From: an uncultured Acidobacteriota bacterium
GTDB lineage: Bacteria > Acidobacteriota > Vicinamibacteria > Vicinamibacterales > JAKQTR01
Length of the DNA: 64,000 nucleotides
Assembly: GCA_963806085.1 (NCBI GenBank)
Contig: CAWDWR010000003.1
Coordinates: 943,498 to 1,007,497, forward strand
Reading direction: 5' to 3'
Position numbers and translations under genes: made by a program. Below the pieces are notes generated by a model. The model was given only the letters and a program-made list of their open reading frames with translations, was not told where the DNA came from and made no database searches. Positions 13,141 to 62,091 of the stretch are shown piece by piece. Each line of letters opens with the position of its first letter. Position 1 is the stretch's first letter.

Positions 13141-13216
13141 TGGTGGGCCCACCAGGATTCGAACCTGGGACAGGCCGGTTATGAGCCGGCGGCTCTTACC
13201 GCTGAGCTATGGGCCC
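13141..13216 (-). tRNA. tRNA-Met (anticodon CAT), CCA encoded
   Basis: The reverse complement folds as GGGCCCA TA GCTC AGCGGTAA GAGC C GCCGG CTCATAA CCGGC CTGTC CCAGG TTCGAAT CCTGG TGGGCCC A CCA. All four stems are perfect. G1-C72 is paired, so this is an elongator type. A lysidine-modified tRNA-Ile2 cannot be excluded. Confidence 0.9.
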
Positions 13217-55071: not shown

Positions 55072-55104
55072 CGATCCGCCGACCCGGCGGCTGGAGATGG
55101 CGCC

Positions 55105-57257
55105 GTGACGAGACGCGTGTCAGGACTGGCCGTCTGGCTGGCGCTGCTGGCCGCGGGCCCGGCCGTGGGCCAAGCCCGCGCGCCTCAGCCCGCGCCGGTA
55201 ACATTCGAACAGAAGCTGGCCTGGATGCTCAGGCTGGAAGACCAGCGGATCCTCCGTGCCCCGGCGCCGCCGCCGGCGGCCGAACCGGCTCCGGCGAAAG
55301 GGCGCCGCCCGAAGCAGGTCCTGGCGCCTCCGCCGCCCGCGCCCGACCTGCTCGCGCTCCTCATCGATCCCGATGGACGGGTGCGCCGCCGCGCTGCCCA
55401 GGCGACAGGGCGGGTCGGGCTGCCGGAGGGCGTCGCGCCGCTGGCGGCCGTGCTCGCCGGCGACGGCGATGCCGACGTGCGGCAGATGGCGGCCTTCGCG
55501 ATGGGGCTCATCGGCCATCCGTCGGCCGTCGAGCCCCTGCGGGCCGCCTTGCGCGACCCGTCGCCGCTGGTGCAGGGGCGCGCGGCCGAGGCGCTCGGGC
55601 TCGTGGGCGATGCCGGTTCGGCTCAGGCTATCGCCGCCATGGCGTCCGGCCATCTCCCGGCACTGAAGGCGGCGGTCCTCGGGGCTGACGACGGCGCCTA
55701 CCCGCTCGATCCTCCCGCGGAAGCGTTCCGCCTCGGCGTCTATGCCCTGACGCGGCTCAAGGCGGCCGACGCGCTGCTGTCGCTCGTGCTGGACGCCGCA
55801 GGGCAGCCGCGTCTCGCGTGGTGGCCCGTGGCGTACGCGCTGTCCAGGACGGATGACGCGCGCGTGGTGCCCGCGCTCGCAACTCTGGTGCGGAGCGGGA
55901 ACCGCGTCTCCCGCGCGTTCGCGGCACGCGGCCTCGGGGCGCGCAAGGCGGCGGGGAGCATCGGCCTCCTCGCGCCGCTCGTGGGGGGCTGGCAGACCGA
56001 CCGCGGGACCGCGGTGGCGGCGATCCGGGCGCTCGCGCAGATCGGCGGCGCCGAAGCCGCCGCGCCGATCAGGGCCGTGGCGCAGGCGCGCGACGCCGAC
56101 CCGAACGTCCGGCTCGAGGCCGTCACGGCGCTCGGCGCGCTCAAGGATCACGAGGCTCTGAACCTCGTGCTCGACGCCGTCACCGATCCGTGGCCCGCGA
56201 TGCGCGCCGCCGGCCTGCGGGCGCTGAAGGACATCGACCTCGACACATTCGTCATCGTGCTGTCGGGGCTCGACGCGGACCCGCACCCGAGCGTGAGGAC
56301 GGCCGTGGTGTCGCTGCTGCCGGCGCTCGGACCGGCGCGCGCCATCCCCAGGCTCGCGGCCTCGATGACCGGCCCCGACGCCGCGGTGGCCGCCGCCGCC
56401 ATCACCGCCATGCTGGCCATGCCCGAGAAGCCGGCTGACTTCGCCGCCACGCTGCAGCGCCTGCTCGCCAGCGGCGACGTGATGGTGCGTGCGGCGGCCG
56501 CGTCGGCCCTGGGCGAACTGAAGCCGCCTGGCGGTGAGCGGGCGCTCACCGCCGCGTACACGGCCGGCCTGGCCGACGACCTGTATCAGGCGCGCGCGGC
56601 CGCGCTTGTCGCGCTCGCGAAGTACGGCGCGGCTGCCGCGTCGGCCGTGCTGAACGACGCGCTCGCGCGACCGCGAGTGGCCGGTGCGGCTGCGCGCCGC
56701 CGAGCTGCTGCGCGCCTTCGATCCCGCCAGCGACGCGAGCGAGAGGATCAGGCCGGCGCCCGGGCGGCCCGTCGAGGCGTACGGCGCGCCGGCGCTGGTC
56801 GCGCCGCAGGTGTCGCCGCACGTGTTCCTCGACACGGACAAGGGGTCGGTGGAGATCGAACTGGCCGTGCTCGACGCGCCGCTCACCGCGGAGAGTTTCC
56901 TCGCGCTGGCGCGCCGGGGCTACTTCAGCGGGAATGGCGATCCATCGCGTCGTGCCGAACTTCGTCGTCCAGGCCGGCGACCGGCGCGGTGATGGCGAAG
57001 GCGGGCCCGGCTACACGCTGCGCGACGAGATCAACATGCTGCCGTACCTGCGCGGCACGGTCGGCATGGCGCTCGACGGCGCGGACACCGGCGGCAGCCA
57101 GTTCTTCATCACGCTCTCGCCTCAGCCGCACCTCGACGGGAAGTACACCGTCTTCGGCCGCGTGGTGGCCGGCATGGACGTGGTCGATCGCCTGCAGCAG
57201 TGGGATGTCATCCGGCGCGTACGCGCGTGGGACGGCGTCGAACTGGTCGTGCGCTAG
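55105..57257 (+). CDS. Secreted HEAT-repeat protein fused to a C-terminal cyclophilin-type peptidyl-prolyl isomerase, frameshifted in this assembly
   Basis: GTG start and a signal peptide (LAVWLALLAAGPAVGQA). About 550 aa of HEAT/PBS-lyase-like repeats follow (DPDGRVRRRAAQATGRVG, DADVRQMAAFAMGLIG, DPSPLVQGRAAEALGLVG). The PPIase part reads FLDTDKGSVEIEL, AIHRVVPNFVVQAGD, TGGSQFFIT, KYTVFGRVV. Confidence 0.75.
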
Positions 57258-57330: not shown

Positions 57331-57358
57331 AAAAAAACGGGGGTGAGATCACCCCCGT
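57331..57358 (-). terminator. Rho-independent terminator of the AKK minigene
   Basis: The minus strand reads ACGGGGGTG atct CACCCCCGT (9-bp GC-rich stem) followed by TTTTTTT. Confidence 0.85.
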
Positions 57359-57375
57359 CATCGGCGCATCGAAGC

Positions 57376-57429
57376 TTAGCGCTTCTTCGCAGCCTTCTTC
57401 GTCGCCTTCTTCGCAGTCTTCTTCGCCAT
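57376..57429 (-). CDS. 17-aa Lys/Ala-rich small protein MAKKTAKKATKKAAKKR
   Basis: The ATG is preceded by GAGGAGGAACA. The ORF is built from 12-nt repeats, which are four AKK-type units. It has its own promoter (57523-57550) and terminator (57331-57358). It was too short for the ORF track. Confidence 0.55.
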   Translation of the reverse strand: MAKKTAKKATKKAAKKR

Positions 57430-57522
57430 TGTTCCTCCTCGGAATGTGGCTGCTCAGCTGGTTACCGCCGCCGATCGATCACAAGCTCTGGGCTGAGCGA
57501 ACCAGGCTCATACAAGCTGTAG

Positions 57523-57550
57523 ATTATGGATGAGAACAAAACGATGTCAA
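57523..57550 (-). promoter_or_regulatory. Near-consensus sigma-70 promoter of the AKK minigene
   Basis: The minus strand reads TTGACA - 16 nt - CATAAT, in an AT-rich patch about 95 nt upstream of the ATG. Confidence 0.6.
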
Positions 57551-57556
57551 GCACAA

Positions 57557-57581
57557 AGTTGCGTCCGCGCGCAACTTTTTT
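57557..57581. terminator. Hairpin with flanking A- and T-tracts downstream of the TPR gene (candidate bidirectional terminator)
   Basis: AAAGTTGCG tccgcg CGCAACTTTTTT. On the minus strand the stem is followed by TTTGTGCTT. Confidence 0.5.
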
Positions 57582-57649
57582 CGATCGCGATCGCTGATGA
57601 CGGCGATCGGGACCGCGCGCGGCGAGGATGAATTGTGCGGGACGCGAGG

Positions 57650-60382
<2,733 letters not shown>

Positions 60383-60425
60383 CGGACTAATATATCCCGA
60401 TGCGTCGTCGGTGACCTGCTGGTAG

Positions 60426-62091
<1,666 letters not shown>

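Follow-up and report, generated by a model that had tools for sequence, protein, structure and literature searches.

A conserved free-standing micro-gene in Vicinamibacterales for a 17-residue lysine- and alanine-rich peptide, a probable nucleic-acid binder

An uncultured member of the Vicinamibacterales (Acidobacteriota) carries, in the gap between two convergent protein-coding genes, a minute gene for a lysine- and alanine-rich peptide of 17 amino acids (aa), MAKKTAKKATKKAAKKR, which is the subject of this report. The DNA analysed is a stretch of 64,000 nucleotides (nt) of contig CAWDWR010000003.1 (assembly GCA_963806085.1, positions 943,498 to 1,007,497 of the forward strand), referred to as the window, and all positions given are those of the window. 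The micro-gene is located on the minus strand, between the stop codon of an upstream TPR-repeat gene (TAA, 57650..57652, minus strand) and that of a convergent gene coding for a HEAT-repeat/cyclophilin fusion protein (57255..57257, plus strand; 73 nt past the end of the T-run of the micro-gene's terminator). Judged by comparison with its relatives, it is a genuine free-standing protein-coding micro-gene, and it probably encodes an overlooked nucleic-acid-binding peptide.

The first-pass annotation of this region had proposed a self-contained minigene with a near-consensus promoter in an AT-rich patch, a leader of about 90 nt with GAGGAGG before the ATG, an 18-codon open reading frame (ORF) made of four 12-nt repeats, and a terminator of a 9-bp GC stem plus T7; all of these elements are present on the minus strand, with small corrections to their coordinates. 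The promoter consists of a -35 hexamer TTGACA (57550-57545) and a -10 hexamer CATAAT (57528-57523) separated by 16 nt. It matches the consensus at 11 of 12 positions, one such site being found in 2 kb versus 0.1 expected from shuffled sequences, and sites with at least 10 of 12 matches number only 4 in the whole window on both strands (128 kb, 75% GC). GC content is 0.47-0.52 at 57450-57599 versus 0.75-0.84 in the flanks. Conserved TTTGTGC stands directly 5' of the -35 hexamer, and the -35-region block TTTgTGCTTGACA (57545..57556) is near-invariant in 122 unique upstream sequences. The -10 hexamer is part of the invariant 23-mer CCATAATCTACAGCTTGTATGAG (57507..57529), which also covers the start site, predicted near A57520, and the first nucleotides of the leader. 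The 5' leader of ~91 nt (57430..57520) contains the Shine-Dalgarno sequence GAGGAGG (57434..57440), and AGGAG(G/A) likewise precedes every first-copy ORF in the relatives. The ORF itself (57376..57429) comprises 17 sense codons and TAA (ATG 57429-57427, TAA 57378-57376); its length is exactly 17 codons because an in-frame stop codon lies 27 nt 5' of the ATG with no alternative start in between. It is internally repetitive (57382-57426; period 12, 3.8 copies, 84% matches), and its peptide has a net charge of ~+10 and zero hydrophobic or acidic residues. An intrinsic terminator follows (57331..57359), composed of a GC stem-loop (57359-57336; scored at 10 pairs, 7 of them G-C, with a 4-nt loop and the 9-bp core ACGGGGGTG/CACCCCCGT) and a T7 run (57337-57331); the scan for terminator-like sites found 1 versus 0.5 expected. 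The predicted transcript of ~190 nt would thus include the leader, a strong Shine-Dalgarno sequence, the ORF and the terminator, and as a whole it shows no excess stability against shuffled sequences (z = -1.23). Single-window scans alone do not show that this set of elements exceeds chance; their conservation in relatives does.

Relatives were sought with the in-frame part of the neighbouring TPR protein, at one genome per species and with the minigene outside the query. Ten loci (L001-L010) were found, with TPR proteins 40-85% identical to the query; those with a lineage name are from Vicinamibacterales or Vicinamibacteria. At the same site 3' of the TPR gene, 10/10 possess a Lys-rich mini-ORF of the form MAKK...KKR, in 7/10 as two tandem copies. 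The exact 23-nt block CCATAATCTACANCTNGTATGAG, extending from the -10 hexamer into the leader, is common to the window and all ten relatives, and the sequence TTTGTGCTTGACA upstream of it is likewise nearly invariant. The minigene is kept at one fixed locus in every Vicinamibacterales-type soil or marine Acidobacteriota relative examined.

A scan of metagenomes with the 23-mer yielded at least 120 contigs. The pooled counts that follow combine the contigs listed with the ten genome loci and the window, and apply to the matches listed. Because the 23-mer ends ~70 nt 5' of the Shine-Dalgarno sequence, the ORF was not selected for by the search pattern. When the count was restricted to the 111 loci with at least 300 nt past the motif, a MAK-type ORF was present in 110; what is conserved is therefore the ORF and not just the terminator. 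The first-pass reading of a self-contained, independently transcribed and terminated minigene is thereby supported, since it had named conservation of the terminator without the ORF as grounds for refutation. These loci harbour 179 ORF copies coding for 61 distinct peptides of 13-70 aa with a modal length of 16-17 aa, so that the variation in repeat number raised by the first-pass annotation does occur, as length differences between lineages. Lysine makes up 53% of the residues and alanine 28%, followed by G (6%) and by R, T and V (4% each); all copies except one (178/179) begin with MAKK, and the last three residues are KKR in 167 and KKK in 12. Where at least 750 nt were available, one copy was counted in 34 loci, two in 55 (~60%) and three in 1. 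The order TPR gene, minigene(s), convergent HEAT-cyclophilin gene is preserved almost everywhere, even where the HEAT domain is only 33-50% identical to that of the window. The best 120 HEAT-cyclophilin homologues are all at least 54% identical, too close to mark a taxonomic boundary, and do not extend to a cultured strain.

The differences between copies are those of a coding sequence. In 40 unique pairs of equally long copies from the same locus, synonymous differences were counted at 221 codons and non-synonymous ones at 27, the differences at codon positions 1:2:3 being 25:25:238. Of these pairs, 24 code for identical peptides despite 3-9 silent differences, and in most lineages the tandem copies specify one and the same peptide. 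Lineage-specific variants, e.g., MAKKTAKGGKKKATKKR, MAKKGGKKKGGKKR and MAKKAKKAKKAKKR, are found in both copies of a locus. Between orthologues, the summed column entropy of the 17-codon forms is 2.3, 5.0 and 14.5 at the three codon positions, and MAKKTAKKATKKAAKKR recurs unchanged in L001, L002, L009 and L059 with synonymous nucleotide differences. The 179 intact copies and the synonymous third-position substitutions are the properties of a protein-coding gene, and the substitution pattern shows that selection acts on the peptide. Since gene conversion would erase the silent differences too, the identity of paralogues indicates purifying selection on the peptide within lineages, its spacer residues included. 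Peptide sequences differ between lineages while being constrained within each, and the constraint on the A/G/T spacer residues within a lineage argues for a specific partner.

Several variants of the locus were observed. Single long forms of 35-70 aa, built of AKKK/AVKK repeats, occur behind the same promoter and leader (L013, L024, L030, L043, L063, L068, L099, L105, L112, L121 and L126, the last with a 70-aa plus a 49-aa form), which suggests repeat expansion or fusion of short forms. In one lineage (L007, L008, L010, L014, L022, L109 and similar loci), copy one consistently ends with KKK and copy two with KKR while the peptides are otherwise identical, a fixed one-residue difference between paralogues. 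L019 has the 23-mer and the 5' stem-loop of the leader, no mini-ORF, and unrelated sequence after ~90 nt; it is a rearrangement or a chimeric contig.

Upstream of the promoter, the inverted repeat AAGTTGCG/CGCAACTT (57556..57577, minus strand) abuts the -35 hexamer. It is specific to the window's clade and may serve to terminate the upstream TPR gene; in L009, a hairpin of the same kind is formed by another sequence. In L003-L008, L010 and most metagenome loci, a second conserved box, TTTTGAC, is located ~19 nt 5' of TTGACA (~55-60 nt 5' of the -10 hexamer), together with which it forms a direct repeat of (T)TTGAC, a candidate tandem promoter or activator site. The window's clade is without this box and has the inverted repeat (57577-57556) instead. 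A quasi-palindrome around the -10 hexamer (CTCATCC...GGTATGAG) was considered as an operator and dropped, its 5' half not being conserved in the long-leader class.

The leader is conserved. A profile search (nhmmer) detected it exactly once in the window (E = 1.5e-17) and once in each related locus, and its first ~35 nt are more conserved than the ORF, several positions being invariant where the flanking proteins are only 40-50% identical; in the metagenome set, part of this apparent invariance follows from the pattern used for the search. Two pairings of the leader had been pointed out by the first-pass annotation, CUGGUU/AACCAG (57505-57500 / 57463-57458) and GCUCAGC/GCUGAGC. Both are present and, because they stand in crossing order, would be mutually exclusive or form a pseudoknot; the second is conserved in relatives as GCUCAG/CUGAGC, while the first is particular to the window's own clade. 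GCUCAGC (57492..57498) lies in the loop of a 5' stem-loop (GCCUGG ... CCAGAGC, 57485..57507), and its distal partner GCUGAGC (57452..57458) lies 11 nt 5' of the Shine-Dalgarno sequence; this pairing appears in both the minimum free energy and the centroid fold of the window.

Applied to 73 leaders, RNAalifold predicted nothing beyond an invariant helix of 4 bp (UGAG/CUCA), in which there was no covariation, and helices defined by hand were therefore tested. The 5' stem-loop is paired in 82% of cells across 76 unique 5' ends, versus 39-64% with a slid partner, and has 7 double-change cells, a number reached by 0/500 shuffles; its stem reads GGGUGG/CCACCC in relatives, GCCUGG/CCAGAGC in the window and GGAUGG/CCAUCC elsewhere. 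The long-range helix GCUCAG/CUGAGC is paired in 86% of cells in the 73 leaders, with mostly one-sided changes from G-C to G-U and few double changes. Taken together, the two helices reach 82-88% versus 28-64% in slid controls. The middle of the leader is lineage-specific, and its hairpin (mean z -0.39 against mononucleotide shuffles) is convincing in one leader class only (GACGGNN...NNCCGUC). A structured leader is plausible but only modestly supported.

Within the leader, a candidate upstream ORF of 10 codons and uncertain status (MSLVRSAQSL, 57479..57511, minus strand) begins at an invariant AUG at about +10 and overlaps the 5' stem-loop. It runs for 9-10 codons to a conserved UAG/UGA/UAA in 91/111 unique leaders, with the pattern MRVD[GR]SAH[PL]L in relatives, and stops after 3 codons in 5 leaders; neither a Shine-Dalgarno sequence nor a clear codon-position signal was detected for it in the 111 unique leaders.

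The conservation of the leader bears on the possibility that the transcript works mainly as a regulatory RNA, of the small or the dual-function type, with the ultraconserved 5' part as its active portion. The greater conservation of the leader's beginning relative to the ORF, the modest evidence for structure and the compact promoter-to-terminator layout typical of small RNAs would all fit. However, substitutions with a period of three and an ORF intact in 179 copies demonstrate selection on the peptide, and the apparent invariance in the metagenome set is in part a product of the search. Rfam 15 gave no family match in the minigene region at gathering score, and at E up to 10 this region and nine related loci returned only chance hits carried by terminators, the best in the region being sroD (18 bits versus a threshold of 50, E = 1.5). 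A mainly regulatory RNA is, accordingly, an unlikely account of the unit, but the transcript may have an RNA function beside the coding one.

If the peptide is the functional product, its target might also be something other than a nucleic acid: it could act as scaffold or spacer of polyphosphate granules, as an encoded polyamine substitute or as an exported cationic antimicrobial. The composition (K 53%, A 28%, G 6%) has a charge-driven look, and the histone-H1-like protein AlgP organises polyphosphate granules (PMC9239181). Export or activity on membranes is made unlikely by the absence of a signal peptide and of a hydrophobic face, the neighbours are TPR and HEAT-cyclophilin proteins with no linked transporter or modification genes, and the sequence constraint between paralogues exceeds what bulk charge needs; we give targets of this kind a low probability.

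Loci with two copies offer a further view of the unit. Their first ORF is followed by its own hairpin and T-run in 49/67 cases, within ~10-40 nt, and copy two is preceded by a second, different conserved leader (GUGCCAGGCGGCAG ... GAAGGGGGGGAU). In the inter-ORF spacer this second leader reads GAGUGCCAGGCGGCAG ... CCCAAC..GAAGGGGGGGAU (e.g., L007 7240-7425, L021, L003 7270-7530), where its G-rich tract resembles an extended Shine-Dalgarno sequence. In single-copy loci whose leaders measure 140-235 nt, the 5' stem-loop is joined directly to the second leader. At a contig end (1129-1182), L085 has a partial, inverted second copy of the leader. After the last ORF, a strict heuristic found a hairpin and T-run in 86/110 loci, with 76 different terminator sequences, and in essentially every locus the 3' end of the convergent HEAT-cyclophilin gene comes after this terminator. 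With a terminator at its end and a convergent gene beyond, the last ORF does not encode a leader peptide for another gene.

These arrangements could nevertheless be read as a translation-dependent regulatory device in which the peptide itself would be irrelevant: the ORF would then specify a leader or attenuator peptide, or would sense Lys-tRNA or the capacity for translation. The ORF is very short, over half of its codons specify Lys as in amino-acid-sensing leader peptides, and read-through from the first hairpin into the second ORF could depend on translation of the first. The first ORF could, however, regulate nothing but a second copy of the same peptide; the window has one ORF only, no co-transcribed structural gene of the kind that follows attenuator leader peptides lies downstream, and the non-Lys residues as well as the MAKK and KKR ends are under purifying selection. 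Such a device is improbable. That the signals came together by chance in an AT-rich gap, or that the assembly produced them, is suggested by the weakness of lone promoter and terminator matches and by the many frameshifts in the window's assembly. Both are refuted by the presence of the unit in 10/10 independent genomes and at least 120 metagenome contigs with coding-type substitutions, and their probability is negligible.

A real micro-gene whose peptide is a polycation binding a nucleic acid is the explanation that we favour overall, with moderate confidence. The near-consensus sigma-70-type promoter would drive the ~190-nt transcript, with strong expression; the loop GCUCAG of the 5' stem-loop, paired to the segment 5' of the Shine-Dalgarno sequence, would most likely set mRNA stability and translation, and the leader may in addition mediate feedback by the peptide. 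The product would act as an abundant cytoplasmic polycation on a polyanionic nucleic acid. The best, though tentative, guess at its partner is structured ribosomal RNA, which bL37, bS22/eL41 and bTHX would exemplify; the identity of paralogues at the spacer residues argues for a defined partner. Next, and rather doubtful, comes chromosomal DNA, bound by a minimal histone-H1-tail or protamine-like nucleoid peptide; peptide lengths of 13-70 aa, and A, G, T and V replacing one another from lineage to lineage, argue for such looser, charge-driven binding. The most specific version, in which the peptide is a structural component of the ribosome throughout the Vicinamibacteria and its synthesis is fed back through the near-invariant leader, is on balance unlikely. 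A hint of ribosomal RNA (rRNA) mimicry may be seen in two leader motifs: UGGCUCAG, the loop sequence in leaders of class-B loci (e.g., L016, L021), presumably equals the 3' end of the universal 16S 27F primer site, and the second-leader motif CAGGCGGCAG resembles what we take to be the next conserved stretch of 16S rRNA; either likeness could be chance in GC-rich RNA. For comparison with these motifs, 16S rRNA was searched in the DNA of the related loci by blastn, and none was found.

Several points weigh against the favoured explanation. Transcription, translation, abundance and binding partner are all read from DNA sequence. The length range, and the freedom with which A, G, T and V stand in for one another in different lineages, are more in keeping with a polycation of no particular specificity than with a fixed pocket in rRNA; the minigene is located outside any ribosomal-protein operon, and the AT-rich region between -10 hexamer and start site is unlike stringently controlled ribosomal promoters, a rule from E. 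coli that may not transfer to Acidobacteriota. A peptide of 17 aa is, unlike known nucleoid proteins, without a dimerisation or bridging domain. The window's leader folds no better than shuffled sequences (z = 0.11), and the strong conservation of the leader sequence leaves only modest covariation. Finally, the window assembly is indel-noisy, though the ORF agrees with four relatives.

The minigene is too short for standard gene callers to report. As a vertically conserved free-standing gene of only 13-20 codons, it extends across a major soil lineage, the Vicinamibacteria being among the most abundant soil bacteria, and its promoter and leader are conserved far beyond the surrounding proteins. 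The tandem copies with identical peptides and many silent differences make it one of the clearest purely comparative proofs of coding in so short an ORF. Should the peptide be ribosomal, a lineage-specific ribosomal protein would be added in a phylum without a ribosome structure, at 13-17 aa the smallest known; should it be nucleoid-associated, it would be a minimal bacterial 'protamine'. For small-protein research, it offers a synthesisable peptide and a 23-nt tag that locates the locus in any genome.

The genes neighbouring the minigene in the window are accD, ddl, tgt and those for the TPR protein and the HEAT-cyclophilin fusion; together with their relatives, they place the window in Vicinamibacterales, within the Acidobacteriota. 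Four of them switch frame repeatedly without stop codons, namely the genes for the HEAT-cyclophilin (55100-57257, plus strand) and TPR (57650-59203, minus strand) proteins, ddl (59594-60547, minus strand) and tgt (60480-61733, plus strand). Because conserved genes change frame in this way, the assembly seems indel-noisy, or the genes are pseudogenes; L001 possesses an intact HEAT-cyclophilin orthologue of 718 aa. The three other near-consensus promoters of the window were considered as further minigenes and rejected, as they precede ordinary protein genes instead: by eye, an unidentified ORF (44282, minus strand), a membrane glycosyltransferase-like N-terminus (20079, plus strand) and a MutS2-like N-terminus (19291, minus strand). 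The only Rfam match in the window at gathering score is a tRNA gene (13144-13216, minus strand; 68.4 bits).

Literature searches on Acidobacteria, Lys-rich small proteins, the peptide string, unannotated ribosomal proteins and Vicinamibacteria transcriptomes revealed no description of the minigene, nor was a ribosome structure or proteome of a Vicinamibacteria strain found. When ten family members of 20-70 aa were looked up by exact match in a collection of 15 billion proteins, none was present. Profile scans were performed with six longer members, the 17-aa peptide being below the 20-aa minimum. In Pfam, only the 60-aa member hit PF07382 (HC2), with 13.7 bits (E = 0.068) versus a gathering score of 40 bits, and the other five had no hit. 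In NCBIfam, NF038053 (cut-off 80 bits) was approached by the 60-aa and 70-aa members with 12.6 and 12.1 bits (E = 0.12-0.17), a compositional likeness. No ribosomal-protein family of either database was matched by the six members at E up to 1. The resemblance to histone-H1-like tails noted in the first-pass annotation thus holds for composition and not as homology, the best Pfam and NCBIfam values (E 0.07-0.17) being far below the cut-offs.

Attenuator and arrest leader peptides, here the his, trp and pheL leaders, ErmCL and TnaC, are alike in their 13-20 codons, one dominant residue, a structured leader and a close terminator hairpin; in contrast to them, the minigene is without a downstream structural gene, the next gene being convergent, and its peptide is under purifying selection. 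Coxiella burnetii ScvA, which we take to be a basic stand-alone protein of ~30 aa in the condensed nucleoid of the small-cell variant and thought to bind DNA, presumably differs in being Arg/Gln-rich instead of Lys/Ala-rich, stage-specific and from an intracellular pathogen. Closest in size, charge, stand-alone small ORF, lineage restriction and missed annotation are tiny polybasic ribosomal proteins such as bL37, the bS22/eL41 type and bTHX of Thermus, and the paralogues coding for identical peptides with silent differences recall yeast RPL41A/B. These proteins share no sequence similarity with the minigene peptide; they are non-repetitive, Arg/Lys-rich and of fixed length, whereas the peptide has Ala/Gly spacers and a length range of 13-70 aa. 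One of them, bL37, is a lineage-restricted protein of 24 aa in Actinobacteria; it came to light only when small ORFs were fitted into cryo-EM density that had no explanation (PMC5876184).

In composition and in the behaviour of their repeats, the nearest proteins are the bacterial histone-H1-like ones with Lys/Ala-rich repeats of the AKK type (Chlamydia Hc2/HctB, PF07382; Pseudomonas AlgP; Burkholderia hist_H1_lk, NF038053; and the mycobacterial HBHA tail). Proteins with such Lys-rich repeats serve to bind DNA or to arrange polyphosphate granules, and their repeats vary in number (PMC2848022, PMC9239181): Hc2 ranges from 165 to 237 aa by the number of its lysine-rich repeats (PMC2848022), and mycobacterial HBHA with its lysine-rich tail is a nucleoid-associated protein (PMC10665949). 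Electrostatic attraction is presumed to hold them to DNA or polyphosphate (PMC9239181, PMC10665949). The minigene shares the short tandem repeats of varying number, as its 61 variants of 13-70 aa demonstrate. It differs in that its peptide is 5-15 times shorter, usually 16-17 aa, and has no significant profile match, in its fixed termini (MAKK, KKR), in tandem paralogues kept identical at the peptide level, and in a dedicated, near-invariant promoter with a structured leader. By the tests run, the minigene peptide belongs to none of the known systems compared. It represents an extremely short form of the Lys-rich basic-protein theme that had not been described before, and its expression cassette is unusual and near-invariant.

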